Counted from the first letter of the stretch, positions 29,044 through 56,609 are shown. The stretch is 64,000 nucleotides of DNA from Botryllus schlosseri (GCA_051294905.1 CM119371.1:2854001-2918000); one strand, 5' to 3'. Made by a program: numbers and translations. The notes: generated by a model not told the origin, from the letters alone.

Positions 29044-29144
29044 CCGATTTCAGGATCCATATGCTGTCCAACCGTGCAGCCACTGCACATGTATCAGTAG
29101 GTTGGTTGCGTATAGCGTCGGCAGAAAGGAAAAACTTCCAAACT

Positions 29145-29686
29145 GGTGACATTTCGAACCATTTTCCCCAGGTAGGTTTCTCAAGTCCAACTTACTAAAA
29201 AAGGCGCGATCGTATTTAGAAACAAATTCGTCAATCTCTTTGTTTCTGCCAGTAGCGGTTTTCTTTGAAGTTTTGGGCCTCTCCCTGAAGTGTGTATGTG
29301 TATATCCTTGCCTTGCCATACTTCAGCATGACTTTCCGTTGCCAATATTCGGTACTGCCCTTTGTCTATCGAACGGATTTTTGGTCTCATGTGATTCCGT
29401 AACGTAAGTTTATTACGGATGGCTGTCATACCGACGTCTTGAAACGGAAGTGTAGTAGGATTTGAGGAATCTGCACAGAGAGTCGCTTTCGCGTCCGGTA
29501 TTCCAGAGTTGTGCATCGTTTTCAGTCTTTTCTCGCGAACGACCGAATCTTCCGATGACTTTCTCTGAAACGTCTTCTGTTTGGACTCAATTTACGATCG
29601 TCATCTTTCGACGAGTTGATTTCCTTTTTATCTTCTGATTTGGGAGCAATACCGCTTTACGCCGTTCGTTGATTTCGAGTGCCTTC
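29145..29686 (-). pseudogene. RBM28: RBM28/NOP4-like pseudogene copy 1, terminal exon
   Basis: Acceptor ctccttttag. Frameshifted pieces KALEINERRK, LRNHMRPKIRSIDKGQ, IDEFVSKYDRAF and GKWFE parallel the recalled RBM28 C-terminus (RKLKMKE.R; LPSHRGPKIR.RDKGK; F..LVEQYK; SKWFD). Confidence 0.8.
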
Positions 29687-30620
29687 CTAAAAGGAGGAAA
29701 TCGGTTGATTTGAGCGAGAAAAATAGTATTTGTATCACGTAACGGTAACTTGATATATTTCAAAAAGTAGTAGGCTACTTATTAGTAAGGCTGGGTACAA
29801 TGATTCAATTTCTCGTATCTGATTCAAGTATTAATTCTAATGATTAGAGTCGAGTTGTGATATTATGCGATTCTTACAACTAGGGCGGCAGGGCAAAATC
29901 GGGCTTCGAGTCGAGTATCAGTCGTTATGACAAAATAACAGTGTGCATTATGTCAAAGTTCATATACAGAACTTTTATGCTACTGCCAATAATATTCCAT
30001 GTACTCAGATATTTTTTCGACCATACCGATTTCAGTGCGCTTTGTGACAATGCTGTGGGTTGAGCATGACTTCTCAAACATGGTAATATCAATAACATTG
30101 GTAGCTTCCTGCTACACGATTCGTATGCTGCGATACGTCAAGTCGAGGTTGCAAGGCTTCCACAGTGGAAAATACCATCGCCATTATAATTCTCATTGAT
30201 AAATAATCTTTCATCGGCAATGAGCGTATAATATCAGTAGGCTACTCCAAAAATTCCAGTACTCTACTCGAATCACTGTGCCCAGCCCTACTCACCACTA
30301 AGTGTAAATTTCTAAACAAAAATTGTAATTTCGATTTCCCACTGTGGAAGCCTAGGAACTCCATTGGACATATAACAGCATACGAAACCTTTCGTACAAA
30401 ACTATATTAGCGGAAATGATATATCTGTGAAGTCGTGATCAATTCACAGCATTTGCAATGAAATAGGAATGGTTAACAAAATACCATATTATTTTTAATT
30501 TGAAGTAGAACCGGCATCATATTCCTTGTGGTCGCATGGGATGTACATATTTGCACTTTTCAAATTTTGTATACTGTTATGACGTCATGTTTAGTGGTAC
30601 TCGACTCGATGCCTGATAAT

Positions 30621-32927
30621 AATCAATTCATGACCGAGTCACTCAGGTACTTGATTTTGACAACCTTACTCATGAGTAGTACAAGGACATTGTCAGTGGT
30701 CATCAACTCTCACAAAACATCATTATTCAATAATGAGTGGCACCATCTCAAAATCTATTCGGGTGGCCAACAAGTTACAAATCCCATTGGGAGTGTATTT
30801 TTTCACATACTTTTTCAGGCCCCGCCGAGTATTATATTATTTACTGGTATGCAGACTTGTGTAAGCTACCAATCTGGATAGTTGAAGGTCAACTAAAAAC
30901 TGGGTTTTTGATTAGTTGAAGTTGTGGATTTTGAAAAGTGAGTAGTTTTAGTTACAGTAGCGCATTAAAAAAGTAGTTGCCAATAACTGGAAAACTCACG
31001 GCATCGTTTTGCGTGAATCGTGATACCGTCTTTGTGTTGTGTGATGTTCTTGCAGCCATTTCTACCTCAGAGTCATCACTAAAGAGACTGCCGTAGGGGT
31101 GTTAGGGGTTGAAAGCCTTCCCATTTTAACTAGAAACCCTTACTTTTAGAAGTGACGATTCCGTATCCAATATTTCCTATCTCGTTAGTGATTCAGTAAT
31201 TTGTATTATCAGTGCTGCCAATTATCGACAGTGCATAGTGGTATGCGATCTGGTTAGTTAGTTGCAGAGCTTTAATGGTCGTGGTTACAGTTACGCATCT
31301 CGAACACCCAGCAGTTTGTAGGAGTCTGTTGGTATATATTATTTTAGGAAGTGGGTAGAGCTTTATTCTCATTGGCCGAATGATTATGATCAAGTGTTGT
31401 AAAGGAAAAATGATATCATAAAATGAAACAGAAAACGAGAAAAGGCAATGTCAAAGTCACAAAATGTCTGCTTTGCTTGCAGTTTTACCTGTTTTCCAAT
31501 GAAATTCGACTATGGGCCTCTTGATCGGTACGAAGATGCCAGGATTGTCATCAACACTTTTCGAAGCTTTCAAAGCGTGCTCGTGCTTGGTGATGTAAAT
31601 GAATGCGTATCAGAGCGGTCTTCCGACTCCATCTTTGTTGAAAGTCTTCTCGAGAATCCATGATAACTGCACCATGTCGATCTTTGAATTGGGACAGCAG
31701 AAGCTCCTGAAAACATAATGGAATCACTTTACCGAAGTACTCCTCAGAGTAAACGAGTTAGTCACACAAAACGGCTACAGACAAAATATAGAACAGCGCT
31801 TCTCTACTTTATCAGCTTGTGTAACGGTAAAATTTCCAAAAATCAAGATCAACACAGAATGTAATGACGACAACAGCAGGCAATTTGAAGCCAAGAATCT
31901 TAACATTAATCATTTAAGAAATTTGCTACAGTCCGTTTGATATCACACCTGTTATATCAGGTCTCATTGAAGCCCCTGAGAGACGGGATAAAACCAACAA
32001 CTCACATTTGACCATTTGGTGTATTTTGGAAGAAACACGACCAAATGTTTGCCAGATATATAATACTGTCAAACATCGCTAATTTGGTATTTTATAATGT
32101 CCTGAAATTTCGGAAAGTATTTATGACTCATGACTGGTCCTTAACGAGTTGAAGGCTACTTTCAAACATGGTATAGCACTCGAAGCATTGTTCGCTGAAG
32201 ACTTCGAGGTTAGCATAAGGTATCACCAGGTTAGAAAAGGCTAAGAACCACTGCTCTAGTCATTTCGTATACTACCTCGATGATAGCACTTCATAGAACA
32301 CACACATATTTCAGCAGAGAAGTTGTATCCAGTGATAATCAGTTTAACGATAAACTTGTGTCATAGCCATGAATGGAAATTGTTAAATTGTTAATACTCT
32401 CAACCGATGCTACTTGTTCGAGGTTCTTATGCGAGGACAGTGGTTCTTAACCTTTACCAACCCGGTGAACCGTTACATTGATCTGACAGCATTTGGAGAA
32501 TCCCAAATATTTTCGGCAAGTCACTAGTAAGCTACCAGGTTACACATCTAATACACTACCGTACTATAGAATACCGGTCCACTGAATCAACTTTGCATTA
32601 CCATCACTGTCGAAGGAAAAAAACATATAACATGATCACACAACATATATTACAGTAAATGATTGAGACTTCTGCTGTATGAGTCTGGTTCAGAATGACT
32701 TGGACAAATAAATAATTCTGGTTGTTTGATTTCACTAATTATAGGAAAATGTCGGTAATATAATTTCAACATAATTACTGAAATTTGTCTTTGCTGTAAT
32801 TCTAATCCGATTTCCTAATTCTAATGTCTTTTCTGGTTCATCCAGAATTGCTACAGGAGAACTGTACCGTGAAAAATGAGTCGAGCATAGTGTGCAGACA
32901 TTTGTCAGCGTCATACTCATGAGAATA
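30621..32927 (+). repeat. Segmental duplication, copy A (partner 54665-56609)
   Basis: Long near-identical colinear sequence, e.g. catcattattcaataatgagtggc and ccgaagtactcctcagagtaaacgagttagtcac. Confidence 0.95.
31489..31706 (-). pseudogene. RBM28: RBM28-like pseudogene copy 1, exon with the C-terminal half of the last RRM
   Basis: AG/GT flanked. [42 protein letters not shown] versus recalled human G.[39 protein letters not shown]. The RNP1 Gly codon is TGA. Confidence 0.9.
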
Positions 32928-33249
32928 AGGTGTGATATGATATGAAGTTTTTGCAAATTGAGTAATTCTAATTACAATCTAATTTGGTAAAACTGTGTAA
33001 CTATGCAACTTGAAGTCTGGTCTAATTGAAAAAAAAACGGTCCAGGTATAATTCGAATTCTAGTCTAATTTGGAGAAAAAAAAATGTGCAGCTATGACTC
33101 TAATTCTAATGTAATTTCGAAAACCCGAAAATCATGTAGTTGTCCAAGTTTGGCTCATAAAACCCCTGGCGTATCATATGAGCCCCAGTTAGTAGGCACC
33201 GCTCCAAGGTAAATCACAAAGCATGCTAACAGTTGTGATTCTGACATAC

Positions 33250-33391
33250 CCTCAACTTCTAGGAAGATTGTCAAAATAAAGTCAAGTTGCAGAGAGACAT
33301 GAGGATTTTTTCTGTTTGGCCCGTTTGGCATTGTTGATCTTTTCACGTTTCTTCCATTCTATTGCGTTGAGACCTTCCGCGGCTCGCGTTC
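33250..33391 (-). pseudogene. RBM28: RBM28-like pseudogene copy 1, GT.AAEG exon
   Basis: Acceptor tttttgtgtag, donor gtatgt. GTRAAEGLNAIEWKKREKINNAKRAKQK...* versus recalled [20 protein letters not shown]..K..KLK. Confidence 0.85.
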
Positions 33392-34042
33392 CTACACAAA
33401 AAAAACACAGCCGGTCAGTGTAGTCGGCATTGCAATTTACTACGAGTGTTAATCGGGTGTGGCTACTTTCGAAGTAGATTCTCGATCAAAGCAAAATGAT
33501 TCACACAATACACAGGAAGAATCTTGGAAAACATTTTCAACTACAACAACACAGGCGACTGTCACTCAGTAAAATAAGTGTTGTAACTTATCTCAAAACT
33601 ACTCTGTAGTTTTCAAAATCAAAATGCAATAGTAAGTACCGTAGTTTGGTCGTGAAGTAGAAATGGAAGTAGTCGTAACATAACCAATTTAACCAGCTAC
33701 CGGTATACTAAACAAAACATACTAAAAAGTTTTAGGAATCAAAATGGAGTCAAATGCCATCCAAGCGGAAGCAGTAGTCTTCGCAGCAAACAAAAACTTC
33801 ATGTTGAGTGAAAATGAGCTTTCAAAGTTGGTATATGATAGTTGCAAAAATTAGCTAAAATAGTTGAGAATCACTGGGTGATATGAACTCAAACGGGAAG
33901 TGTACCGCTCGGACACGACGATGATTAATTATGATAAAAATGTACGAGAATGGGTCTTTGATAAAAATGTGTTACATGATACCATGCCATAGACTGCAGG
34001 TCCGTCAGATATAATACAATTTTATACATCGATACGCTAGTG

Positions 34043-35209
34043 CAGTGCCTGTCAACCTTTTTGAACACCATCAGCACTTTTTCTGGAAGATAAATTTCAT
34101 GGCAACAAACCAACCGAAAATTGTTATACAAAAAGAAAATGTAGATACTTAACAAGATTTTGTTTATATGTGCAAGAAGTAGGCGACTGGTTCACGTTAT
34201 TAAATGTCTCATTAAAAAGACCACTCTATTCCGTAGTTTTGATTTCAACTATACTGCAATAAACCCTTTTCGGCGAAATAAGTGTTCAGTTTTATACAAG
34301 AACTTCTAGTGCTTGGATATCCAGGTGTTTATAAAAACCATTCTGCACCCCTATCCAGAATACAGCGTCTTTTCCCTTTGCAAAAAATAAGGTTTCCGAC
34401 ACAACCTCCAGTTCGTCGAATGGCTGCAAAGCCCGCATGTCTATTTCAATGCTTCTCTCATATGACTTGGAAAGTAAGCTCCAAAACTAACATGAAGAAT
34501 AAGCACATATGAGCTGGATACCTTGTGATACGCTGATAAACAGTGACCTTTGATATGTAAAAACAATCTGCAAGAAATTCCTCAAATTTTACCTGCATAT
34601 TATCAGACCACTTAGGTGGCGTGAAGACTCAAAATTATGCCATTTGCAACCCATACTTCGAGGAGCCGTGACGGGGACAGAATTTGCTTTACAGAAAATT
34701 GCAAGTGTGAGTCTTTGATGATGGTATGTATTACTATCTTCGTGCCACGTGCTAATCGAACCATTTTTACGAAAATATGATGATTTTCCATAGAAATAAA
34801 GCAGACAGTCATTTTTTAAGTCATTAACCCCGCGTGTCGCAAGCTCAGACTCAGCTGATGTACTGTAACCTATACATGCCACTACACCCGGTTTTGTACC
34901 AGACTTTTTAGTAGGTAATAAATACACCGCACAAATAGTAATTCACTATGGCTAGCGTGAGACAAAGTTATTGTAAAAGATACGAATAGGTCAAACACAC
35001 TTTTCCATTTACGTTTCAACGACCAAGGTTATGGAGCCACTGCACTCGAATTTCCTATCAGGTTTATTTGAATTATTCCACGCCAGAACTAGTACGGTGA
35101 CAATTATTCACTATTTTCATCCGCATTCATCTGCACCACGTCTCTCATCCGCACTGCAAATTTTTCCATCCGCACAAATGCGTACCATCCCACAGGTTGA
35201 AAGGCACTG
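34043..35209. mobile_element. hAT (Charlie/Buster-type) element
   Basis: cagtgcctgtcaacct / aggttgaaaggcactg; TSD cgctagtg/cgctagtt. Confidence 0.88.
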
Positions 35210-35765
35210 CGCTAGTTCATTTAATGGAGAACATGAAACTTTTGAATCGATTTATAAATTCGTAATGTGTTGATCTGCGTCTTGTCATGACAGAGTTCAT
35301 GCCCTACTTTGGTCTTGGCATACATCACAATTCCCAATAATGTAATTGCTGGACCAAACTTTTTAAAAGTAACCTACCTTTCAACTACTTGAAGAATAGG
35401 CTATTTATATGTGATTGTGTAACCGAAGAAGACTTGTAAACCAAATTCGTTGCATATTGACTCTACCTTTTGGAGAGATCTATGAGTATAATGGAGTCTG
35501 GAGTCTAGCCCACACCAAAGTTGTTGCCTTTTGAAAAGAAATCCAAGAATATGAATCAAGTTAGTGCGTAGAGCCACTCACAACGAGTGTGATATCAAAA
35601 AGGCACTAGCAACTGTCTAATTGAAATGAGCCTCTGATATATGCTTTCAAGTTGCACACTTGCCTCAAATACGTTTTAGGTTAATTTTGATTTTTGATGA
35701 CTGGTCTAGAGTAGGGCAGCACCACAATACTGAAGAGCTTGTGTTGGATATTGGCCCTCGTGTAC

Positions 35766-35915
35766 CAGGTCGAACGAGACATTACCTGCCGCGATACGAA
35801 TTCCTCTTGTTCTACATTTCATGATTTCGGTTCTACTGTTGACTGGGAATCCTTTTCATATCAGTACTGCTCACTGCTTGATACGTTCGAATCTCTTTCG
35901 CGTTCAGGATCTTGC
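35766..35915 (-). pseudogene. RBM28: RBM28-like pseudogene copy 1, exon ending in the RNLYLAREGLIR-like motif
   Basis: KILNAKEIRTYQAVSSTD...NKRNSYRGR*CLVRP(G) with three stops. Its phase-1 donor joins the GT.AAEG exon in frame. Paralogous to 54095-54240. Confidence 0.75.
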
Positions 35916-36082
35916 CTGAAATGGCAGCCATATATTTATTTACAGACAGACTTGTACAAACTACCAATCTACCATCATCAACTAACTAATGATTACTCAG
36001 TTAGTTCTAGTTGCGGATTTTGAAAAGCGAGTAGTTCTAGTTCTAGCTCATGTTGCGGATTTCATAAGGTTAGTAGTGACAG

Positions 36083-36571
36083 CAGGGTTCTAATGACTTG
36101 ACCCGAGTCACGGTTTTTGGTGACCTAATGGACTCGAGTATTTTCTACAAATGCATAAAATGACTCAAATCGACTCGAGTTATTTTCTGCATTGACTCAA
36201 CTTGTACCTGAGTCACTATACATGACTCGAGACTAGGACAGCCAAGACAGGCATTTCATTGTAGCTTCAAAAAATAGTTATGTAATCATATTATTGGTGT
36301 TTCGGCTATCGGTCCTGATACTTGTAAAATAGGGTCAGGAACTGTTAGAATTGAGGAAAATTACGATATTATGAATGCCGGCGATTCTATATCACTAGAG
36401 CACAGTTGAAAAATTGGGTTGAATCGGATTGAGATCAAAACTTGACAGTGAACACAATGACTCGGACTTGACTCGATGTTGAATTGAAAATGACTCGACT
36501 TGACTCGAGTCAAAACTATAAAAGTGAAACTGACTTGTGACTCGGATTCTTGTGACTTGGTCACAACCTCG
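36083..36571 (+). mobile_element. GACTCGAGTC-family hAT MITE
   Basis: cagggttctaatgact ... gtgacttggtcacaacctcg; family-typical body. Confidence 0.8.
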
Positions 36572-36928
36572 AGTTCTAGTTGCACAATTATAAAATAAAC
36601 AACTAGAAAACACGCGTCTTCTTATGAAGTAAATCATGATACCGGTGTTCTGTCGTGATAGGTTCTTGCGGTCATCACTACTGACATGGCATAGCCTGGG
36701 TTTGAGGGTCGAAGCCCCTGCCATTTGACGCTTGAAACCAGTTCCTATTAAAATGCAGTTTCTATCTCATTTGCAATGCAAAGTTTGCATTAAAATCACA
36801 GTTGGATGTGTTTTATTTAGATAGTATGGGATTTCCAAAGGCCGTTAGGCCTCTATGTACTTGTAGTTGAGAGTTTTGCAATAGCCACAATAGTGAAATT
36901 AAAACTAAACACGGACACATCTACTTAC

Positions 36929-37090
36929 ATTTTCGTCTCGATTCAGCACGTCGACACAGTTTGTCGCTTCTTCCGTGGTCTTGAATTGGACGAGAGCACA
37001 TCTCTTGGTCATTTTTCTCCGATTCAACTCCCGAAATAACCGTCTCGTGTCGATTTGGTCCATACTTCGCAACATTTGGGGTATTTCAGA
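36929..37090 (-). pseudogene. RBM28: RBM28-like pseudogene copy 1, RRM C-terminal half
   Basis: ...TKRCALVQFKTTEEATNCVDVLNRDEN|gtaagt versus recalled SKGCAFAQFMTQEAAQKCL.A.SPEN. Upstream boundary uncertain (may extend to about 37400). Confidence 0.75.
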
Positions 37091-37573
37091 CTAAAAATAA
37101 GGACAAATTGCCAAAAAGGTGAAATTTTTGGCGAAGGGAGAGCAGTTCTTGAAAATGGAGGACAAATCCTCTTAAATGTGGACGCATAATTAGAAGTTCA
37201 TGCTTTCTACTTGAGAAGCCTTACTGACTACTTTGACCACCTCTGCATACCGTCCACTTTTCCACTTATTGTGACGTCAGGGTCAAAATTTGAGTGCGTC
37301 CCACATATATTCCTTACCATGTTAGTTATGAAAGCAGGCAACAATCTGCACCACCCAAGAAACGTGGACTGCTGATTTGTACGAACTACCAATCTAGTTA
37401 GTTGACAGTGAACCAACTACTGGCTTTTTTGAGTAGTTCTAGTTGTAGCTGCAAGTTTTGTAAACTGAGCAGTCCTAGTTCTAGTTTCAAGTTTTGAATA
37501 TCCAGTGGTTCACACATGTCTGGCGGACTACTGACTAGCATTCCAATGAGACACGTTACAAAATAAGCTTTAC

Positions 37574-37709
37574 CTTTGCATAGAAAATCCGAGAAAGCCT
37601 TTGCCAAACCGCTTTCCAAAACCTCGAGACAGATTTTGAACAAATACAGTCCGTACTTTGCGACCATCGTCAGACGTCTTGGAAGCGTGTTTCTTCTTGG
37701 ACTCGACAA
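37574..37709 (-). pseudogene. RBM28: RBM28-like pseudogene copy 1, RRM N-terminal half
   Basis: Acceptor gctttcag, donor gtaaag. KKKHASKTSDDGRKVRTVFVQNLS, then (frameshift) EVLESGLAKAFS. RNP2 motif; compare recalled SDVNEGKTVFIRNLS. Confidence 0.78.
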
Positions 37710-39746
37710 CTGAAAGCACGCAAGCACTAAAACCAAGCACACATAGCATGCGCTTGAAATTGTGTTTACTGACCTCTTATGGGTGTATCTATTTTGCCAA
37801 CGTCGTCAACTCTACTACTTCTGTTGCAATAATGCGGGTAATTATACCGACGAGAGAGACAAGGCGCTGTCGGCGCATATTTTCGTTTGTATATTCATAT
37901 TATGTTGAGTTGCACAAAATCAGGGCAATTTCATTCTACCTGTAAGAATTGGTAAAGCGATATATATAGAGAGAGCAGACAACCAGATGAAGATAGAAGC
38001 CGTCATTGATGTTAATAGAGTAAAATAATGTAACAGTTCCAGGTGGAGTCAAGACAGTTGCTGTCATTAATGCTACACCAGTAGAATAATAAAATATTTC
38101 CTGGCAGAGTCGAGATTGTTATCAAAATTTATGCTTCTCACGTATAGTTGACGACATTGACTACATATCTACGCCCGCCTCTTAACGGGTCTCCAAATAT
38201 ACACTGTCACTTTTAAACTAGATTTTGTGGTATCGGGTACGGGGGACTGTAAGACTAACACCATGATCACAAAGTACAAACAACTAGAAATAACATCACT
38301 AAGCCCCTGGAATAGAGGAAATTATATTAATAAATGATATTTTCTGGAAAGCCAGGTGTGATTCACTTGATGTGGGGTTAGATGTTGAGCGAAGCGTTTT
38401 CGTTGGGGACAGCGTCGTATTGAGGTTGACATCTTTGTAGACACTCGATTCAGGAATCGGTTGCCCGGATTTTGTCAATGTCATTTTCATAAGCACTAAA
38501 ATAGCGAATTTCTGTAGAGCAAGCACGGCTCGTCTCGCACTATACAGTTCTCCTATAGCAGTGGTGTTCAACCTTTTTGTTTTCGCGGACCCCTTTTGGA
38601 CCGTCAGTGACCCCCCGCGGATCCCGTATAGTTTTCGCTCAAAATTATTTTTAAAAAAAATAGGCCTAGAAACTGTACTCATGAGCATGAACATTAGTAG
38701 TGAAGAGAACGAGTACATCATGGTTGTTACTGGTAGTGACGAGAACACACAAATATTAGGATTTGAAAACATTGATTTGTCGAATAATGAAATTCACAAT
38801 TTACTCACGTTGAACCTCCTCAGTATGTCTGTCGGATATTAATGTTTGTGAGACTCCGACTGATCGGTTGAGATTGTCATGCAAATCTTTTGCGAAAGGG
38901 ATTCTGATCCACTGGAGGAACAGCCTTTCAAATGAGATGTTACGTATGATGATCTTGTGATTGCGATATACTGTAATAAAATCAAGTCTGGTTACATAAA
39001 GTAGAATCAGTAAACCTATATATCTATATATAGCACAGCACCCAGCTATATTGATCTATTTATTATAGTTTACAGGCAGAAATGGTCAAGTTGTTCTCGG
39101 AGTTACTCAGGTAGAAGTAACGTCATACATTTCTACCCAAGCACTATTACAAGTTGCGATTTACAAGTAAGTTAAAGGGTAAATGCTAGGTTTGACTAGA
39201 AAACTGAAAACGGTTCAAGTATAAGTGCAAGAGGTCCAAAATCATAACCACTCGAGTAACTAGTGCTAGTATACAAAACCTATTTGGGATTTGAGTACTA
39301 TGAAAAAATTAAATAGCTTGATACTGATCACCAATGCTAGCAGAGGGCCAGATTCCGTTTTCTAGTTTATTTTAAGTCCAATCATAGCAATGGTTGTAGT
39401 TGTCTGTGCTTGAAGCGAGATGAAATATATAATGAATATCGACTGCTACATCGGCATGATCAGTGAAGGTGGTAGTCATCAGTTTGATCGGCAGATGATG
39501 AAATATCCGATAACGGTCAGGCTCTAATTCAGTGGTTCTCAACCGAGCGTCCGCGATAGCTACAAATTCGCAGAAATGGTTCATGGCCTAATTTGTATTT
39601 TTTTAATTAGATAAATAACGCGGCAGCTTCGCTTCATAATTGCTAACACTTCAGAACCGTATTATTGCCACGAATTCTCCAATGATATACTAGGAGTTAG
39701 TTTAGTAGTCAGTCGTAGCCAGTGACAAAGTATTTCTACTTTTGGT

Positions 39747-40380
39747 CAGGGTTGTAACCATGTCACAAGGTTACAGGTCAATCTCACTTTTATAGTTTTG
39801 ACTCGAGTCATTTTGAATTCTCCACCGACTCAAGTCCGAGTCCATGTCAGCAAGCAGAGAATCAAGTCTGAGTCTTGGTATTGTAACGTGAGTCCGAGTC
39901 CAAGTCATTGCGTCGACTGCTCAGTTTTCCGCTAAAGTCTTGTTTAATCCACTTTTTATAACTGTTTGGTGATATCGAATGGTTCGCATTTATAACATAC
40001 AATTGAATAGTATATTCATAATGAAATGAACTCGAATATTTCCGGCTGACACTCGTCAGGGGTAATCGTCAGCAACAAGTAGAGAAATTTATAATATACT
40101 AATATATTTTTACCTTGTAACAGTTTATGGTTTCATTTTTAAGTACGGCTACCAATAGATGAAATACCAATAGTGTGGCTACTTTACTATTTTTCGAAAT
40201 TACAATGAAATGTCCGCCTTGGCCCACTGCGTCTCGAGTCATATGGCTTGAACTCTAGTCATTACACAGATTGACTCGAGTCCAGCCATTTCCATACTTT
40301 GAGAAAGTGACTCGAGTCAAGCTGAGTCATCAAAAAATCGCGAATCGAGTCGATCCATGACTCGAGTCATTACAACCCTG
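39747..40380 (-). mobile_element. GACTCGAGTC-family hAT MITE, complete
   Basis: cagggttgtaac / cattacaaccctg; TSD cttttggt/attttggt. Confidence 0.92.
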
Positions 40381-40559
40381 ATTTTGGTAATGCTCAAGTA
40401 CTGGTAGGTTTGTCTAGTTGCACTATCAACTCAATTCCTTATGATCTTAAACTGCTTCTACTTGTTCTTCAAAGTTTCGTGAAAAACTGGTCTACTTACT
40501 TCTTAACCTTGATAATTTATCAAGTGTAAGGTAGTTTGGGGATGAGCTTGCGTGATTTT

Positions 40560-41030
40560 TATGACCTACATTGGCATGACATATGGGCAAAATATCCCTG
40601 CATCACCGACACCAAACATATATTTTCGAAAATTGCACATAAGCCGATATGTCGTGTCATTTGTCATGGTGATGCACATGCAATTCCGAAAATATCCAAC
40701 TACAATTACTTGCTAAAAGCATGTAACACGTCCAACAAGTTGACTTTTTCAAACTACGTACTCGTGTACTTTTCAGACCTGTCATTCCGTACGAACCCTG
40801 GACGTAGACATTGAAAATCTATTCGAAATCGAGCAAAAATTTACAGCTATATTCAACGTCAATTTGAGTTTCTTTTTCGACTACTTGGAACACATAGTAA
40901 CAAACAACACAGTTTTCCTGTGGTATGTTCAAACTTGCGGACCCTTATTATTCGCATCAAGAACTGCGTCACACACATTGCTAACCTTGATAGTGATAAT
41001 AATAGGCATCGGTTTACACCACACAAGAAC
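40560..41030 (-). pseudogene. Decayed RRM-coding segment (extra RRM halves)
   Basis: Fragments IIITIKVSNVCDAVLDANNKGPQV*TYHRKTVFVT, IFNVYVQG, LLDVLHAFSK and SAYVQFSK follow the beta-alpha-beta order of an RRM; many disruptions. Confidence 0.5.
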
Positions 41031-41238
41031 TGTGTACCATAAATTTATACTGCCAATCCAGATTGTTGACGGTATACCAACTATATGGTTTTTATAGTAG
41101 GCCTAGTTGTAGTTCTAGGGTTAAAAAGTTAAGTAGTCCTGGTTCTAGATTTTCGATCTAAAATCCAGTAGCTTACACAAGACTCGCGGACTGCCGACCA
41201 GTGATGCAATGAGACACACGTTACAAAATAAGCTCTAC

Positions 41239-41382
41239 CATGGTATCATAAGTCTGGCCGTACGCCGAGAAAGCTTTGGCCAAAACGTCTTCCAAAAATT
41301 GACTTATTTTGAACAAACACCAGCCGTCATTCGTGAACATCGGTAGACGTCTTGGGATCGCGTTTCTTCTTGAACTTAATAA
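41239..41382 (-). pseudogene. RBM28: RBM28-like exon paralog (RRM N-terminal half)
   Basis: KKKRDPKTSTDVHE*RLVFVQNKS / LEDVLAKAFSAYGQ; DNA alignable with 37574-37709 including intron flanks. Confidence 0.8.
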
Positions 41383-41620
41383 CTAAAAGCAGACAAGAAC
41401 TAAGGCCAAGCACACACAGCATGAGCTCGAAATGCCGTTTTGTTCATCTGGTATGGGTGTAGCTATTTTGCTACTGTCGCCAATTACGATATACTGCCTG
41501 AGTAGCAATTCGGTAACTATAATGAAGTGAGAGACAAGGCACTAATTTTCGTTTGTATATTACTCTAACGTTAAATTGCATAAAATCTCGGAGCAGTTTC
41601 ATGCTATCTGGAACAATGGG

Positions 41621-42114
41621 TAGGGTTGGGCAAAATCGAGTACCTGAGTGATTCGATTCTGAATCGCATATTACGCTTCGAGTCGGGTCGAGTATTCGAG
41701 TATTACTCATTATGACGGAATGACAGAATGACTTTTACAGAATGTACTTTGTCAAAGTTCAAATATGTGCCTTTTATTAGACCACAAATAATATAATGCT
41801 GGTTAACCAGCAAATTAAAGATACTTCGGTATTTTTTTGCCCATATCGATTCCATTGCAGTTTTTGGCAACGTTGTCGGAGGATCATGACTTCGGAAACG
41901 TGTTATTTCCAGTAACATTCGTTGCTCTGTACTATGTCGCGTATGCTGCGACACGGCCAATCAAGTTTTTTTTTCAAGGCTTCCTTAGTGGAAATAGCAT
42001 CAAAACTAGAATTCTCGTTAGTAAATTAACTTTGAAATGCGAGGAGCGTGTGATTCCAGTACTCGAAAAAAATCGTTTTCTACTACTCGACTAGAATCAT
42101 TGTGCCCAGCCTCA
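41621..42114. mobile_element. TAGGGCTGGGC-family MITE
   Basis: tagggttgggcaaaatcgagta ... aatcattgtgcccagcct; inverted homolog of 25854-26370. Confidence 0.85.
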
Positions 42115-42221
42115 ACAGTGCGTACAAAAATTGAGAGAGGTGTATAGAGTAGACAACAAGATGGATAAAAGGGCAATACAATTACTTTTACTGCAACCAC
42201 AACATAGTGTAAGGCTAGAGC

Positions 42222-43218: not shown

Positions 43219-43408
43219 CCTCGCAGGGTATTTTGTTATTGAATAGTACACAGACTTGTACAACTTAGGTTATAATTTAGGTCGTTGCCGGAAACTAACA
43301 ACCGGTTTTTGAGTAGTTTCAATTTCCAGTCGCGTATTTTAAAAAGTGAGTCGTTGTAGTTCGAATAGCTTATTTAAAATGAAAATAAAAATAAAAAAGA
43401 GAAAATAC

Positions 43409-43502
43409 CTGTCATCGTTTGGCCCAAATCAATCTTTTGCATTTTCGTTCTTTTCCGATTTCTTCCATTCTATTGTGCCGAGTTCTTCAGCGGCTTGGGT
43501 TC
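43409..43502 (-). pseudogene. RBM28: RBM28-like orphan GT.AAE exon paralog
   Basis: ttttctgtag|GTQAAEELGTIEWKKSEKNENAKD*; paralog of 33250-33391 and 48957-49100. Confidence 0.75.
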
Positions 43503-43734
43503 CTACAGAAAACGACGTAGGGTCAATGACGTCAGCATTGTAATGTTGTAGAACTTTAGATAGGTCAATCGGAGGTGGGTTGGCTACTAGTACTTACTAA
43601 GTTGCGTCATGACTTGGACAAAAAGAATATTTTGAGCTTTTCTGAATTAGATTAGAATTAGAGCTACACAGCTTTTCCAAATCAGATTAGAATTAGAATT
43701 ACTGATTTTGCAAAAATTGTCTATGGGCCTACAC

Positions 43735-45433
43735 CAGTGGTTCTCAACCTTTTTCACCTCGCGGACCGGTAAAATGTCACAAAACTGACTGGCGGACCGG
43801 TGAACTTTCAAAATTGAAATTAAGCCAAAATGTAAAGCATGCAACCGTTTTTTTCAGTTATATGATGCTAGAGAGTGACATTTAGAGGGTTTTGATCCTG
43901 ATTAATTATCTTCACGATGGCATCCATGTGATTTTATGGTAGTCAGTCTGCTGGAGTCGATGTAAAATTGCCTTATCCAGATAAACGTGCTACCGACGAT
44001 AGTCGTTTACAGTCTTTCGTGCCGAAGGCCGTGGGTTTAACGGACCACGCCAACTCGAATAATACTCTTCTCTTTGACAATATCGATACAAGAAGCGTTT
44101 CGGAGTCAATCCAAGCACCTTGTCGTGCTACCTTGCTCTTTGCCCACTGCCACCGGACGCAGAGGCTACTCTGACAACTACGAATACAATGCGTGACGCA
44201 AGAAAACACCTTACAGTAACTATACCGGCAATCCATGCCGAAAAATCACTTCGACTGCCCACCCCCAAAAGCGTTGATCTTGTGCTCCACAGGTCGATAA
44301 AGCCACAGTTGGGAGGATGTTTTCGCCTTTCTGAGCACATTCATTCTACTCAGTGTAATCAAAGAGTTTAAGTAGCTTAGTACGTCAATAGCGAAAATTT
44401 TCCACTATTCATGACTGAATCGGTTTTCTCGCGGCCGTATTTTTGGCACGCCTTTCGGAGTCGCGTGTTAGCCTAATCTTCATTATTTTGTGTTGGTACG
44501 TCATGGCGCGGTAATGGCTGACGCCCAAATGCATATTTCTATAAATCATGCGTATTTCTCGGAGACGGGCACCTAATATGCAAGACATTTACTGACACTA
44601 AATCGCGCAAAGAGCGAGAAGAAATTGAAAAATGTTGGAAAAAGTTTCAAATATATATGCTATGATTTATGTTCATCATGGTTGTATTGACTCGAGTCAA
44701 TTTGTGTATTGACTCGCCTTGTACTCGAGTCATTGCACATGACTCGGACCGAGTAATATGACTCGAGACTGGGTCTACCAAGACAGGCATTTCATTGCAA
44801 TTTCGAAGAATAGTAAAGTTATCACGCTGATATTATTTCGTCTGTCAATACTGGCACTTGGAAATGCTACCTGAAACTGTTAAAAGTGACGAAATGAGGA
44901 TATTATGAATGAGAAGTATTCGATATCACCGGTTAGAGTTGTGAAAACTGGGTCTCACATGACATTAACTCGAAACTGAAAAGTCCGCACACAATGACTT
45001 GGACTCGGACTCGAGTCAAAACACTATGACTCGGACTCGACGGTCTACTCAGTGACTTGAACTAGGACTTAACTCGGCGGTGAATTTACAAATCTAAAAA
45101 AGTGAGACTGACTTGTGACCCGGAACCTTATGACTTGAATACAACCCTGATGTTCATTTGCAAAATAATTTCGGGTTCTTTTCAAGCTCGGCCCTTCTCC
45201 TATTAGGCGGTTTGGGGTGCCCCAGTTACGGTCCTGCAAAGAATGAATGAATCGAACATGTTTCCAGCCCTAGTGTTACCTCAAGAAGTTAAAATTTATT
45301 TATTTGATCAATGGACAAGCCTTTTACATTGCATCTTGAATTTAAGGTATAAAATTGTAATTTACCTGGCGGACCGGCAGGAATGTCGTCGCAGACCGGC
45401 ACCGATCCGCGGACCGCCGGTTGAGAAACACTG
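43735..45433. mobile_element. hAT (Charlie/Buster-type) element
   Basis: cagtggttctcaacc / ggttgagaaacactg; GCGGACCGG motifs; perfect TSD GCCTACAC. Confidence 0.93.
44677..45149 (+). mobile_element. GACTCGAGTC-family MITE nested in 43735-45433
   Basis: catggttgtattgactcgagtc ... tacaaccctg; perfect TSD ATGTTCAT. Confidence 0.9.
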
Positions 45434-45899
45434 GCCTACACCAAGCTCGTTTTTTACTATACCAGAAGCCACCGCAATTGGCGTTGATCTGATTTGAGAT
45501 TTTGGAAGTACGCGAAATAAAGCATTTTGAAATGCTACAATTGATTTCAGTTTTTAAATGAATATTGTTGTTGTTTCAAAATAAGCTATTCGCATGCGCC
45601 CAACAACATTATTCCACACTAGCTGAAACAGCTTCTGCGATGGCAAGACCATTCCATAGAGGGAGAGTCTGCTTATATCAATAAGCATATTGTCTTGACG
45701 TGCAATGGCCCAGACACTGCCAAGACAAAGTGGCCCAGGACGTCCCCACAGGATCAATGTTTAGGATGAGATAGTCTTTCAGATTAGATTAAAATTAGAT
45801 TACTGGCATCTGGCAGTTTACTCACTTCTGCCTTGAAGTGACATAATGAAAGGTGTTGATAGAGAAAACCAACTTCAAGTGTTTGGAAAGCGAAGTCAC

Positions 45900-46393
45900 T
45901 TTTTAAAAACCAGTGATCACCTCTCTTTACGATTTTTGTGGACAGGCTTCTCTGTCATGCCACTTTGCTAACACACAATCAAAATGACAAATCCTTCTAC
46001 CAGTGCTTCATTTTATATGTCACACCACATTTGCAGGATGTTGTGGAAGTAAGATACTTTTGAATCGGGTAAAGTTCAGAGAGGGCCTGATGTAAAATTT
46101 CCGTTTAAACTGGATGACACATATCTTATTACCTTGTAAGGTCTTCTGAGAAAACTGAACTGCAACAAACCTGTCAGGTATCGTTGTTGTGGCCTGATTT
46201 GGGCACACTAGCCGCCATTTGCTTTTCCGTCTTTTTTCTTGAGTGGCCGAATCTTCCGACGAATAATATCTTGAAACGATGTCGGTTGGAATTCTATTGA
46301 GTATCGGAACCATTTGAGAAGTCAATTTCGTTTTCTGGCTTCCGTTCTGTGAGAAATTCCGCTGCACGCTGTTCTTTGATTTCAGGAGCTATC
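45900..46393 (-). pseudogene. RBM28: RBM28-like pseudogene copy 2, terminal exon
   Basis: DNA similarity to 29500-29760 (ccgaatcttccga; cct.ctag/aa acceptor context; aatcggtt.at.tga.cgagaaa). IAPEIKEQR aligns with KALEINERR. Disrupted. Confidence 0.65.
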
Positions 46394-46505
46394 CTAGAAG
46401 GTAGGAATCGGTTCATATGACCGAGAAATACAGCCCTCGTACCTGATATCTTGATATATTTTCAGAAATAGCACATAGGCTATTAGAGATGCCAATAGTT
46501 TGGAG

Positions 46506-46960
46506 CAGTGGTTCTCGCAGTTTTTAGAGCGCGACAAAATTTTGTGTTACTTTACATTTCGCAACCCAAGATTCGCACACAGTAAAAATGCATTTCTGAC
46601 GCAAGTAAGCCCATGCAACTATTTTACGAGCATGTATGGATCCGACAAGGTACAAACAAAAAGACGGTCGATATCAAAGTAGGCTACCTATACTTTTCCG
46701 GGGTACTCAAGTAGATTTCATCAGATCTGCTAACCATATTTAGGCAGAACCACTTACTTTTTCGACTTTGGATTTTGCAAACTAGAAGTTGGTTTTGGGA
46801 TAGGTTCCGAGCACTTTTACGTATAAATTTCCATAACGGTGAAGTAGCGTCTGTATCACGGTCATTAAATTTATTTTCAAAAATGACACCAATTATTGAA
46901 AACATTTCTTGGCTCATTTTCAATTCAGTATTTTGCATTATCAGTGCTGTCAATTAGCCA
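46506..46960. mobile_element. Truncated hAT element with a Buster-like transposase trace on the minus strand
   Basis: cagtggttctc terminus. SPLWKFIRKSARNLSQNQLLVCKIQSRKSKWFCL resembles PLS..TV.RRI..MS.....QL...I..S.WFALQLDES. Confidence 0.5.
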
Positions 46961-47187
46961 CAATCGACAACACATGGCATGCGATTTAGTTAGTTAGTTG
47001 CATATCTTCAAATGTTTGCTGATTTACATTATTTTAAGAAGTGTGTAGGCCTATACCAGTGATTCTCATTGGCTGAAAGATGATCAAGTGTTGTCAAGCA
47101 GGAATGACGGCAGAAAATAAAGCAGATAACGATCAAAGTTAATGTCGAATATAATGTTGCAATTATCAGCATCGATAGGAATTTTAG

Positions 47188-47428
47188 CTGTTTTCCAATG
47201 AAAATTCAACTCTTGGCCTGTGACTGGTCCAAAAATGTCGGGATTGATATTGATTGAAACTTCTCAAAGCTTTCAAAGCGCGTTCGATTGTTTGTGTGTG
47301 AAACTGATGAATTCGTATCAGAGCTTTCTTCAACTTCTAACATGTACGCTGGAATTCTTCAGATCTCGTATCACTCGAGATTCCGTGATAACTACACAGC
47401 GTCGATCTTTGCATTGGAACAGAAGTAC
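47188..47428 (-). pseudogene. RBM28: RBM28-like pseudogene copy 2, last-RRM exon
   Basis: ERALKALRSFNQ / NINPDIFGPV fragments; donor mutated from GT to CT; alignable with 31489-31706. Confidence 0.82.
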
Positions 47429-48458
47429 CTGGAAACATGATCGCATCAGTTTATCGAAGCACTCATAAGGTAAACGTGTTAGTCAATAGCAAGAAAAAGC
47501 TATACAGTCGAGTATGCTAGTTCGGACAGTTTTGTTTTGCTTCCTTTCGGCAAAAATAAGCGGAGACACTGCTTTGTCCAAATTAACCGGAAATTCAATT
47601 GCCCTCTTATGGCTACCCGGTGAACCCTTACACTAATCTGAAAGCCTTTCGTGAATCCCATATTTTTGTCAAGTCACAAAAAACCTATCACAATACACAT
47701 TTACTACATGACTATGGAACTCTAGTGCGCGGAATGACTTATGCATCAAGCTTCGGTGTTAAGAAAAACAAAACCGTTAGAACATGATCATCACACAAAA
47801 TACACGACTGTAAATCAGTGTGACTTCTGTTGTATGAGTCGGATGTGTGTTTACTTTCCGTGAAACTCAAGACTGGCTCAGAGCAAACTTGGACAACTAG
47901 ATAATTGTATGTATCCAATTGCACTAATTAGAGGAAATTACGGCAATCTAATTATAACATACTTTGTGAAGTGTTCCTTTGCTGTAATTTTAATTCTAAT
48001 CCAGTTCGTGGAATGTTTGTAACCTCTAGTTTAAATTCTGCTCAAATTTCTTGTTTTCCCAAAATGCTACAGGGAACTGTACGTGCAAATCGAGTCAAGC
48101 TTGCTGTACAGATCGTTGTCGTTCTCGTGCTTATGAGACTGAGGTCTGATTTAATATGAACTGGACTTCATTCCATGTCCAAGTTTTCGCGAATTAAGTG
48201 ATTCTAATTCCAATCTAACTTTGAAAAATTGTGTAGATTTAACTCTGATTCTAATCTTAATTTGAAAAAAAAGTCTGGTTATAATTTTAATTCTAAATCT
48301 AGTAGAGTTTGTAAAATAAATGTGGCTTTTAGCCATCATTCTATTTCCAATCTGATTTTGAAAAGTTGAAAATGACCTAGTTGTTCAAATCTGGCTCGTA
48401 GAACCCCTGGAGTTATCGTGTGAAACCCCGGTTAGGAATCATTGCTTCAAGATAGCCT

Positions 48459-48913
48459 TGTTTGCGATTGCGCATGTTATTTGGTAGTCTCTATATTTGA
48501 GTACATTTTTAGAGGAATCAGTTCTCGCTGATGTAACTGTCCTTATTTGTATTCGGTTTTTCCAATCATTGTAAATTTAAGATTTTAGTGATTTGTACGA
48601 TTTTTAGTGATTTGATTGTTTGATTACTCTTTAATTATCTTTTCCCTAGTGTATAAATAGCCCTCGTTACCGTTGTCTCGCCCTCCTTTCGATCGAGCAA
48701 CGGACGAGCAAGCACTATTGCGAAACTCACTTACGCATCTTGGTGTTTCAACCAAAGCCTTGTTTCAATTGAGAGACTTTGATTGTATTACATTGAATAC
48801 AAGACTGATACGCAAGGTTTGCCTAGTCCACGGTAGCAGATTTTAGTGCAGCAGACAGGGTTCGACGCCTGGTAAATCGGCACTCATTAGGATTGGAGTG
48901 TCACGTCGAAACA
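48459..48913 (+). mobile_element. Solo LTR (455 bp) of an LTR retrotransposon
   Basis: TGTTT(G)CGA...TCGAAACA termini; perfect 5-bp TSD AGCCT; TATAAATA at about 48652; absent from the paralogous intron at about 33205-33215. Confidence 0.85.
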
Positions 48914-48956
48914 AGCCTAATCGGAAAGTACGTTAATAGTTGTGATGCTGACATAC

Positions 48957-49100
48957 CTACAACTTTTTGACACATGTAGGAAGATTGTGAGCGCAAAGTC
49001 GAATTGTAAGTCGCATTTTTCAGTTTGCCCCGTTTTGCATTTTCAATCGTCGGACATTTCTTCCATTCTATTGCGTTGAGACCTTCAGCGGCTTGCGTTC
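48957..49100 (-). pseudogene. RBM28: RBM28-like pseudogene copy 2, GT.AAEG exon (itself still open, 144 bp)
   Basis: tttttgtgtag|GTQAAEGLNAIEWKKCPTIENAKRGKLKNATYNSTLRSQSSYMCQKVV|gtatgt. Confidence 0.85.
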
Positions 49101-49609
49101 CTACACAAAAAATCACAGGTGGTCATGAAGTCAGTATCGCACTTTTCTACTTGTGGTAACCATAGATGGCTATACTTTCTAAGTAGCTTCACGCAGGGTT
49201 GTTGACTCGACTTGAGTAATTTCTTGAAATGACTCGACTCGAGTCAATTTTTGTATTGACTCGACATGAACTCGAGTCATTGCGTATGACTCTAACCAAG
49301 TCACATGACTCAAGACTGGGACGGCCAAGACAGACATTTCATTGTAACTTCGAAATATAGTGAAGTCACCGCATCATTGGTATGTCTTCCATTAGTCCTG
49401 ATACTTGGAAAATACGGCTAGGAGCTGTTAGGACTGAGGAAAAGTACGATATTCTATAACACTCGAATAGAAGTGAAAAAGGTGGGTTGAATCGGATTGA
49501 ACTCAAAATTGAACAGTGAGCACAACTACTTTGTTTCCATGCAGTGCCGACGAACGACCAAAAGGCTATGTTGCATGCATTGTACATGTCGGTCGTGTTT
49601 CCATGATCA

Positions 49610-49772: not shown

Positions 49773-50010
49773 CTGGAAGGTAGGTAGGCTGAAATTATAC
49801 ATATAAAAATGGTCCCGGGAATGAATTTTTGGGGTTGCATCGCCTTGCATTTCAAGCTCGAAAGCCCGTCTTTTTGAAATGCCGATTCCATCTCCAGTAT
49901 TACTTATATCATTTGCAATTCAGTAGTTTTTATTACAGTGTTATCAGTTGTAAGTTCGTTGTGTTTGAGTTAGTACGGCATCAGACTTCCGAAAGTCGTT
50001 AGTTCCAGAA

Positions 50011-50997: not shown

Positions 50998-51130
50998 TTC
51001 TAGATCTAATTGAAGTTGCAAATTTTGCAAAACGAGTGCAGATTTTGGAAATCCAGTGGTTTGTTAAAGTCTGGTTACGGTGACGGAATAGTGATTTGAA
51101 ATTACGTTAGACGTGAACGAGTCTACCAAC

Positions 51131-51260
51131 GTTTTCCTTACCGTTCAGTGAGTCGATACAATTTGCCACTTTGTCGAAGGCGAGGTCTTGAATTGGACGA
51201 GAGCATGTCCAATGTCGATGGTGGAATCGATGGCGATCTGAATAGAAGATGTCAAAGATG
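51131..51260 (-). pseudogene. RBM28: RBM28-like pseudogene copy 2, RRM C-terminal half
   Basis: IGHALVQFKT / DKVANCIDSLNGKEN|gt; shares ggtcttgaattggacgagagca with 36977-36998. Confidence 0.72.
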
Positions 51261-53595: not shown

Positions 53596-54094
53596 CTGGC
53601 GGAAGAGACCGACATGACATATTTCGCATCATTCACCAATGACTCAGCAACTACATGATTCTACAATAGAGTAGTGCAAGACACAGATGGGTAGCTTCTC
53701 GCAGCATAGAGGCAACTAAAATGGAACATGGCGGTATTGAAAAATCATTTATTTGCAGTCCCATTATGGTAGTTTACTGAAGAAAATGGCTGCAACCTAA
53801 AATTTTATCACAATTTTATGTTTAATTTGATACAACATCATTTTAGAGCGCATGACCGTTGAAAAGAATTTTTGGAAAATTTTTGTACGACAACATTTCT
53901 GAATAACTGTTGCTTCAGCAATACTTGAAAAACATTTTTTTCGTATTGGAAAACAAAATGAGGTCGCATGTAAATGCTGATTTTATTTTCGTTTTAATTG
54001 GGGTCGCCTATTAAGAAGCTGCCGACCGATGGCCTAGAGTAGGCCAGCCCCACAATACTGACAATTTTTTTGATGAATATTGGACCGCACAAAC

Positions 54095-54240
54095 CTGGTC
54101 GTAAGAGACCGTCCCTGCCAAGATACAAATCCCTCTTGCCATCCTTCTCATTCTATTACTTCTTCCGTTGATCTATCATCCTTTCACGTCTGCTCACAGC
54201 TAGATTACCTTTAATCTCATTCCTGTCCAGGTTGTTGCCC
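54095..54240 (-). pseudogene. RBM28: RBM28-like orphan exon with the best-preserved signature motif
   Basis: NLDRNEIKGNLAVSRRE...KK**NEKDGKRDLYLGRDGLLRP(G)|gt versus recalled LDGRQLKVDLAVTRDE...RNLYLAREGLIRAG. Confidence 0.85.
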
Positions 54241-54664
54241 TTCAATCGTAGTCACAAAGTCACAAATATGTTTACAGACAGATTTGTACAATAGGGGTGA
54301 TAAAAAAAAACCTTTATTCAAATTTCATCGGCTTGATTGTCAAATCGTTAGGTTATCTTAATTAAAATAACGTTTTACACCAAATTTTACTCATTTCCAA
54401 CCGGTAGATGCCGAGGTCATTCAAATTGAAATTTTTTTCGTTTTATAAATAATAGTATTTACGATGACCTATATCGTCACACCGACATGACCAAAAATCG
54501 TGTTCCAGGTATGCCTGAAGTGGCAGGCATGTCTTTTTCACTTGTTTTGATCTTGACAAGGGCCTATGGTGGAGTGTGGATGAAGACATCGCCAGTAAAC
54601 GAAAAAAAGATATGACATGGATTAGCTGGAAATTAGTCCACGTCACTGAAATAGACACGTTAAA

Positions 54665-56609
54665 AATCAATTCATGGTCGAGTCACTCAGGTACTTGATT
54701 TTCACAACCCTACTCGTGAGTAGTACAAGGAGATTGTCAGTGGTCATCAACTCTCACAAAACATCATTATTCAATAATGAGTGGCAGCATCTCTAAATCT
54801 ATTCGGGTGGCCAACAAGTTACAAACCCCTTGGGAGTGTATTTTTTCACATACTTATTCAGGCCCCGCCGAGTATTATATTATTTACTGGTATGCAGACT
54901 TGTGTAAGCTACCAATCTGGATAGTTGAAGGTCAACTAAAAACTGGGTTTTTGATTAGTTCAAGTGGATTTTGAAAAGTGAGTAGTTTTAGTTACAGTAG
55001 CGCATTAAAAAACTGGTTGCCAATAACTGGAAAACTCACGTCATCGTTTTGCGTGAATCGTGATACCGTCTTTGTGTTGCGTGATGTTCTTGCAGCCATT
55101 TCTAGCTCAGAGTCATCACTAAAGACACTGCCGTAGGGGTGATAGGGGTTGAAAGCCTTCCCATTTTAACTAGAAACCCTTACTTTTAGAAGTGACGATT
55201 CTGTATCCAATATTTCCTATCTCGTTAGCGTAAAGGAAAAATGATACCATAAAATGAAACAGAAAACGAGAAAAGGTAATGTCAAAGTCCTTCCGACTCC
55301 ATCTTTGTTGAAAGTCATCTCGAGAATCCACGATAACTGCACCATGTCGATCTTTGAATTGGGACAGGAGAAGCTCCTGAAAACATAATGGAATCACTTT
55401 ATCGAAGTACTCCTCAGAGTAAACGAGTTAGTCACACAAAACGGCTACAGACAAAATATAGAACAGCGCTTCTCTACGTTATCAGCTTGTGTAACGGTAA
55501 AATTTCTAAAAATCAAGATCAACACAGAATGTAATGACGACAACATCATGCAATTTGACACCAAGAATCTTAACATTAATCAAATGAGAAATTTGCTACT
55601 GTCCGTTTGATATCACACCTGTTATATCAGGTCTCATTGAAGTCTCTGAGAGACGGGATAAAACCAATAACTCACTTTATACCATTTGGTGTATTTTGGA
55701 AGAAACGCGACCAAAGGTTTGCCGGATAAATAATACTGTCAAATATCGCTAATTTGGTACTTTAGAATGTCCTCAAATTTCGGAAAGTATTTATGACTCA
55801 TGACTGGTCTTTAACGAGTTGTAGGCTACTTTGAAACATGGTACAGCAGTAACCGCACTTGAAGCATTGTTCGCTGAAGACTTCCAGGTTAGCATAAGGT
55901 ATCGCCAGGTTACAAAAGGTTAAGAACCACTGCTCTAGTCATTTAGTATACTACCTTGATGATAGCACTTCATATAACACACACATATTTCAGCAAAGAA
56001 GTTGTGTCCAGATAATCAGTTTAACGATAGACTTGTGTCATAGTTATGAATGGAAATTGTTAACTTGACGGATCGAATACTCTCAACCGATGCTACTTGT
56101 TCGATGTTCTTATGCGAGGACAGTGGTTCTTAACGTTTACTAACCCGGTGAACCGTTACATTAATCTGAAAGCATTTGGAGAACCCCATATTTTCGGCAA
56201 GTCACTAATAAGCTACCAGGTAACACATCTAATACACGACCGTACTAGAGAATACTGGTCCAATGAATCAATTTTGCATTACCATCACTGTTGAAGGAAA
56301 AAAAACATATAACATGATCACACAGCATATATTACAGTAAATGATTGAAACTTCTGCTGTATGAGTCTGGTTCAGAATGACTTGGACAACTAAATAATTC
56401 TGGTTGTTTGATTTCACTAATTATAGGAAAATTTCGGTAATATAATTATAACAAAATTAGTGAAATTTTTCTTTGCTCTAATTCTAATCCGATTTCTTAA
56501 TTATAATGTATTTTCTGGTTCACCCAGAAATGCTACAGGAGAACTGGACCGTGCAAAACGAGTCGAGCGTAATGTGCATACATTTGTCAGCGTCATGCTT
56601 ATGAGAATA
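54665..56609 (+). repeat. Segmental duplication, copy B (partner 30621-32927), including a truncated RBM28-like exon at about 55290-55376
   Basis: Colinear with copy A but lacks the segments at about 31189-31398 and 31459-31619. Confidence 0.95.

Follow-up and report, generated by a model that had tools for sequence, protein, structure and literature searches.

We studied a stretch of 64,000 nt from the ascidian Botryllus schlosseri (the window). About 16 exon copies related to RBM28/Nop4 are found on its minus strand between 29.1 and 56.6 kb, and they span RRM3, RRM4 and the C-terminus, with a probable remnant of RRM2. RBM28, known in yeast as Nop4, is a nucleolar 60S assembly factor. The exons are designated E1 to E7; E1, E2, E3, E4 and E7 are each present twice and E5 and E6 three times, and all 16 copies are on one strand. 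In the 5' to 3' direction of that strand they are arranged as block C, block C4, series B, block D, block A2 and series A, the positions of which are presented in Table 1. Self-comparison of the window demonstrates long co-oriented homology blocks within 29-57 kb.

Table 1. Blocks and exon copies of the RBM28/Nop4 array, and copies of a MITE-like family, in the window.
Feature	Position	Strand	Remarks
Block C: intron 5, E6 remnant (55290-55376), intron 6	54661-56609	-	Young duplicate of 30617-32927
Block C4: old E4 copy (54095-54239) and flanks	54030-54291	-	KRDLYLGRDGLLRPG; stops; acceptor out of register
Series B, E3 (5'-truncated) and intron start	51087-51205	-	Donor GT at 51130
Series B, main part: E5, intron 5, E6, intron 6, E7	45900-49193	-	
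Series B, E5	48957-49100	-	Frameshift
Series B, E6	47188-47428	-	Stop, 3 frameshifts, donor lost
Series B, E7	from 46393	-	Alignable to about 46120-46220; 45900 end approximate
Block D: old E5 copy (3'-truncated) and upstream intron	43417-43578	-	Acceptor 43504-43503
Block A2: old E1 copy (to 42510, small insertion), intron, E2	40965-42808	-	
Block A2, E2	41239-41382	-	Stop and frameshift
Series A, whole	29150-38970	-	
Series A, E1: probable decayed 5' part of RRM2 (IIRNISF)	38809-38970	-	AG acceptor and GTGAGT donor
Series A, E2: linker end and RRM3 start (TVFVQNL)	37574-37709	-	Frameshift near 37626
Series A, E3: RRM3 core (CALVQF)	36929-37090	-	Open frame; Pfam RRM_1, E 1.5e-4
Series A, E4: RRM3 end and RNLYL motif	35766-35915	-	2 stops
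Series A, E5: GTRAAEG and RRM4 start	33250-33391	-	1 stop; E 2.4e-9 to Styela
Series A, E6: RRM4 core (HEHALKA, KRPIVEF)	31489-31706	-	2 frameshifts, 1 stop
Series A, E7: basic C-terminal tail (PKIR, KWFE)	29150-29686	-	At least 3 frameshifts
MITE-like copies	21190-21370, 28570-29020, 36090-36570, 39745-40380		Both orientations in family
MITE-like copies, further	42810-43220, 44680-45150, 49200-49530, 60520-61030		Both orientations in family

Concerning the identity of the array, the exon at 31490-31660, with its stop read as X, was compared with 1.84 billion representative proteins and gave 96 matches at E<=1e-3. Ten of these were looked up: four are named RBM28 or RBM28-like (Ciona, Saccoglossus, Phallusia and Soboliphyme), and the others are one hypothetical protein, four unnamed proteins and a spurious repetitive P450. 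The top named match is the Ciona RBM28 (57% identity, E 2.7e-9), and a query with the Ciona protein retrieved the orthologues of Phallusia, Clavelina and Styela. The closest named orthologue is the RBM28-like protein of Styela clava (P0113), which ranks first of 153 homologues of at least 600 aa; its score, summed over nine exons of the window, is 852 vs 704 for the next. This ranking suggests an ascidian host that is probably nearer to Styela. No full-length protein closer than that of Styela is found among the matches listed in the homologue searches. Using a profile built from 38 full-length homologues, every match of at least 4 bits lies on the minus strand, and none arises when the window is reversed. 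An ascidian-only profile gave nine matches of at least 3 bits, all on the minus strand within the array, and none at this threshold in the controls (one reversed and two shuffled windows). Exons E2-E7 correspond, in order, to Styela residues 445-959, and series A retains the sequence of motifs from RRM3 through the linker and RRM4 to the basic tail, which maps to profile columns 299-647. A word-indexed homologue search with E6 found nothing, and the searches against solved structures with E6 and E3 returned weak generic RRM matches only (E 0.09 and 1.4, respectively).

The initial annotation had assigned the array to the C-terminal half of RBM28/Nop4, and this identity holds, as the best matches are to RBM28, and not to another RRM family, across the family-specific RNLYL and KRPIVEF motifs. 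The motifs it quoted are on the minus strand where it placed them (TVFVQNL at 37650, CALVQF at 37000, KRDLYL at 54137, TQAAEG at 49098, HEHALKA at 31585, KRPIVEF at 31522, PKIR at 29384 and KWFE at 29164). Concatenated, they follow the RBM28 order but do not come from a single copy, since KRDLYL was taken from 54.1 kb and TQAAEG from 49.1 kb. Both colinear series described there exist, although series A reaches one exon further upstream, to 38970. Series B begins inside E3 at about 51205, the AG near 51240 not being a homologous acceptor, and contains no E4. Two of the exons regarded as orphans have a context: that at 41.3 kb is half of the two-exon block A2, and that at 55.3 kb is a remnant within block C. 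The 5' end of block A2 adjoins an interspersed repeat, and so does the 5' end of the main part of series B.

The array and the Styela protein share the order and the sequence of RRM3, the RNLYL linker, RRM4 and the tail with its KW-aromatic-E motif. Unlike RBM28/Nop4, the array is devoid of RRM1 and the N-terminal third, of most of RRM2 and of the acidic linker. A functional RBM28 is thus not present: there is no N-terminal RRM1-RRM2 region, just the probable RRM2 remnant, and the exons when spliced contain no open reading frame. That remnant is E1. Compared with the RRM2 of four ascidians, a target chosen after the fact, the series A copy of E1 has a summed score of 148, reached by 0 of 600 null windows, and the score of the A2 copy is reached by 11 of 600. 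From this comparison, E1 probably represents the 5' part of RRM2, in which case the remainder of RRM2 and the acidic linker would already have been lost from the common ancestor of A and A2.

Neither an intact RBM28 parent nor its N-terminal half is found within the window. A frameshift-aware scan of the window with the N-terminal regions of three ascidian proteins gave nothing above noise for the N-terminal third (best minus-strand score 47 vs 46-49 in controls). A segment resembling the second half of RRM2 lies behind an AG at 14719-14787 on the minus strand (5.8 bits with the profile of full-length homologues); this match (14784-14719) was rejected because it is absent at 3 bits or more with the ascidian profile and its score of 41 is below the control maxima of 46-49. 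The Pfam scan, which covered 150 of the 227 stop-free frames of at least 58 aa, detected no other gene family, zinc-finger genes included, and gave three matches. The RRM_1 match in E3 is real, whereas Cluap1 (22690-22902, minus strand, E 0.008) and DUF6791 (61190-61483, E 0.009) are below the curated cut-off and were taken as chance. The working RBM28 gene is most likely located elsewhere; a functional parent outside the window would be expected because RBM28 is described as essential in PMC8126767.

Based on the frameshift-aware alignment to Styela, 11 of the 14 scored copies of E2-E7 contain a stop or a frameshift, including five of the six in series A. The three copies with neither are the E3 of series A, which is open and of which the 3' half alone aligns (to Styela 499-521), the 5'-truncated E3 of series B and the 3'-truncated E5 of block D. 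In the old pairs (n=8, pooled), exons differ at 242 of 1011 positions (0.239) and introns at 445 of 1866 (0.238; Fisher p=0.96), figures to be read with the caveat that local alignment favours conserved flanks. The differences per codon position are 49/207, 56/208 and 46/208 (p=0.51, no bias). Equal divergence of exons and introns together with the lack of codon-position bias points to neutral decay. The old pairs share 1866 aligned intronic columns, with the AG/GT boundaries in register, and since the intron flanks are homologous between copies, these are DNA-level duplicates. A processed pseudogene (retrocopy) was considered and rejected, as introns are present and homologous between copies. 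Decay (stops, frameshifts and neutral divergence) and duplication at the DNA level (homologous introns) had both been proposed from the first reading, and both were borne out.

The lack of a selection signal also bears on another possible history, namely descent of the copies from a truncated paralogue, consisting only of RRM3, RRM4 and the tail, which was once functional, diverged under selection and died recently. As read from the sequence, the reading frame of series A continues from E1 into E2. Also, the RRM3-4 fragment of yeast Nop4, the counterpart of the amplified half, is described in PMC4859800 as sufficient for hub function. Despite this sufficiency, the comparison between copies reveals no trace of purifying selection, which argues against a once-working truncated protein; the E2 frameshift at about the same point in A and A2 suggests that the ancestor was already dead, and the window yielded neither a start exon nor any exon of the N-terminus. 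We find this history hardly credible.

Four sequencing runs were compared with 29120-49119 at 80% likeness, of which X1 and X5 are DNA runs from different studies. An X5 contig of 440 nt (record 10) covers 31279-31718 with nine substitutions and no gaps, and spans both frameshifts of E6 in series A. The ungapped contig, together with a frameshift common to A and C, indicates that, for this exon, the frameshifts, which could have been suspected as assembly errors, are genomic. The copies thus have the properties of duplicated (unprocessed) pseudogenes, i.e. homologous introns, neutral divergence and genomic lesions (the latter at E6 of series A). We therefore consider it very probable that the array is a cluster of unprocessed, DNA-duplicated RBM28/Nop4 pseudogene fragments in an ascidian.

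The K2P distances of all old pairs range from 0.20 to 0.37, and the three E5 copies are roughly equidistant (0.26-0.29), in agreement with a single old period of amplification. Block A2 diverges by 17-26% from A, block D by 24% from A and 23.5% from B, and block C4 by 29% from A. Block C, of about 2 kb, diverges by 3.5% and 6.5% from A (93.5-96.5% identical) and, relative to 30617-32927, has lost two internal segments of about 161 and 210 nt. A 14-nt frameshifting deletion in E6 is common to A and C; block C was therefore copied from a template which was already dead. Similarly, the E2 frameshifts of A and A2 lie at about the same point (37626 and 41299); on this weaker basis, the template of the old amplification may have been dead as well.

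We propose that, during one old period, head-to-tail amplification of a genomic piece of RBM28 lacking its 5' end gave rise to at least 3-5 units, possibly through unequal exchange or a replication-based process. Deletions, several of them beginning at the edges of small interspersed repeats, would then have trimmed the units, and this trimming would have led to the scrambled order of E6/E4, then E3, E5, E6, E7, then E5, then E1, E2 and finally E1-E7. Since then the units would have undergone neutral drift and occasional recopying, as in block C from its dead template. The array is most likely without function. Concerning the deletions, four of the ten informative block ends, each a 5' end, are within 35 nt of a repeat edge (expected 9.6%, p=0.011), where the repeats were defined from the window, the cut-off was chosen after looking and two of the 12 ends were dropped because the repeat lies inside the block. 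The position of these 5' ends fits deletions from small transposon ends or recombination between them. Deletion starting at the ends of small transposons, or recombination between such ends, is a generally known process; a literature search found nothing specific on it.

The repeat edges could also be read differently: the RBM28 fragment may have been captured once as cargo of a non-autonomous mobile element of the Helitron or Pack type and spread by transposition, the cluster being the result of local hopping or rolling-circle tandem insertion. The ends of blocks often adjoin repeats, copying went on after the death of the gene, a small hairpin at 56602-56641 overlaps the 5' end of block C, and the contig depth described below suggests many copies elsewhere, with E4-E6 exceeding E1-E3. 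However, within the window the start and the stop of every block differ, and copies without a common 5' or 3' terminus make such an origin less likely. By eye, no target-site duplication surrounds the young block C. The copies are co-oriented, whereas the interspersed repeats of the window are found in both orientations, and no transposase or helicase family was detected in the 150 of 227 stop-free frames of at least 58 aa. The scan for Helitron ends (CTRR) was uninformative (1653 matches vs 1635 expected). We regard capture by a mobile element as unlikely, and favour local amplification of a truncated piece followed by trimming.

The DNA runs also bear on copies outside the window. At the E4-E6 sites the summed contig depth of X1 is 450-1170 over 6-24 contigs, the listed long pieces having 6-21, and that of X5 is 400-2560, the listed pieces having 37-64 and 360-374; summed contig depth is not a copy number, and the single-copy depth of X5 is ambiguous. 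Where run and window mismatch, 18 of the 23 comparable sites carry the letter of a paralogous copy of the window. Contig depth and paralogue letters in X1 and X5 together point to further RBM28 copies elsewhere in the genome. Within 29120-49119, the depth ratio of E4-E6 to E7 of series A differs about tenfold between X1 and X5, which may reflect variable copy number among samples or an effect of the assembly graph.

Splice-site retention is somewhat above neutral expectation, on borderline figures: splice dinucleotides with homologous support are intact in 21 of 23 cases (p=0.06) and in 23 of 25 in a wider set (p=0.04), a score open to ascertainment bias because the finding of boundaries favours intact AG/GT. 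In series A all 13 scored dinucleotides are intact, two of them picked without a homologous partner. Transcription was also considered. In ten repeat-poor bins, the bulk RNA run X22 does not exceed a depth of 1.2 in either direction. The single-cell run X20, summed over the ten bins, favours minus-strand RNA (22.3 vs 3.2), and the strand balance of X22 leans opposite to that of X20 (1.7 vs 4.3). At 33457 all eight X20 reads are on the sense strand, with seven starts; the cleanest has two other differences, and the site is intronic. No joint between RBM28 exons is found among the 15 joints listed of 4513, which is weak evidence because of this small share. The run index lists no RNA run for 29100-38000. 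At 80% likeness the parent mRNA was not clearly recovered in 29120-49119; this would follow from a distance of about 13%, plus indels, between each copy and the ancestor, and so says nothing about the parent. The source of the sparse RNA reads could be the locus, other copies or the parent.

These data are relevant to the idea that weak selection on splicing maintains the array, or series A, as a spliced or unspliced non-coding transcript (a pseudogene-derived lncRNA or a source of small RNAs). The intact dinucleotides of series A, the overall excess and the sense bias of the X20 reads would agree with it. On the other hand, exons are no more conserved than introns, depth is very low and the reads at 33457 are intronic, and exon-exon joints are absent from those listed; the reads may stem from other copies or the parent, and the excess from the way in which boundaries were found. 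Retention as a transcript is in our view very improbable. A broader scenario would make the region a duplication sink, in which halves of essential housekeeping genes are repeatedly captured and amplified to tens of copies that vary among individuals, are transcribed at a low level, keep splice signals slightly above neutral and serve as a non-coding or small-RNA source against the parents; we consider this quite improbable. A decayed array of DNA-level duplicates remains our preferred reading.

In the account of PMC7392758, duplicated pseudogenes arise by DNA duplication and subsequent disablement, and retain introns; those of mouse are enriched for immune, sensory and apoptosis genes, and ribosomal and RNA-processing parents in mouse mostly yield processed pseudogenes. 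The array resembles duplicated pseudogenes so described in its introns, stops, frameshifts and origin by DNA duplication, and differs from them in being partial (the 3' half), multi-copy and scrambled, as opposed to one dead full copy. The copies POLO-F to POLO-K of PLK1 in Daphnia pulex, as described in PMC2680839, are likewise truncated, rearranged and stop-bearing remnants of partial duplications of a housekeeping gene; they concern another gene and phylum, and some have EST or tiling evidence according to the same source. The first reading had taken such copies of RBM28 to be unusual, which is its weaker part; dead copies of parts of conserved genes form a recognised class. Searching by title and the start of abstracts, we found no report of RBM28 copies; the supplementary gene-family tables of ascidian genome papers could list them. 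Nothing was found on gene-fragment capture by Helitrons in ascidians, nor on these copies under partial-duplication pseudogenes of tunicates. For annotation the array is a hazard, through false RBM28 gene models and wrongly mapped reads; it is also a neutral marker of how fast substitutions and deletions accumulate in the lineage. Its importance would be greater only if the copies turned out to be carried by a single mobile element or to give rise to regulatory RNA.

Other features are found in the window outside the array. Two similar exon-like segments of 117-118 nt, bounded by AG/GT, lie on the minus strand at 59424-59540 and 61126-61243; they have homologous flanks, each contains stops, and a third partial copy lies near 59100-59170. 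They are not RBM28 and have no match in the protein atlas or among solved structures; possibly they are debris of another duplicated gene. By eye, single AG/GT-bounded exon-like segments are present upstream of the array at about 57000-57100 and at 62068-62200, also on the minus strand. A decayed piggyBac suspected at 19.0-20.8 kb has no Pfam match. An inverted pair of about 570 nt (17614-18180 and 26374-26939, 86-96% identity, 8-9 kb apart) possibly marks the two termini of an old DNA transposon, with 18.2-26.4 kb lying between them. At 8595-10019 there is a young inverted-repeat element, whose 364-nt arms are 98% complementary and surround about three tandem units of 243 nt. Finally, the MITE-like family of Table 1 is abundant, rich in GACTCGAGTC and present in both orientations; in the compared part of the window its contig depth is very high for X1 as well as X5.
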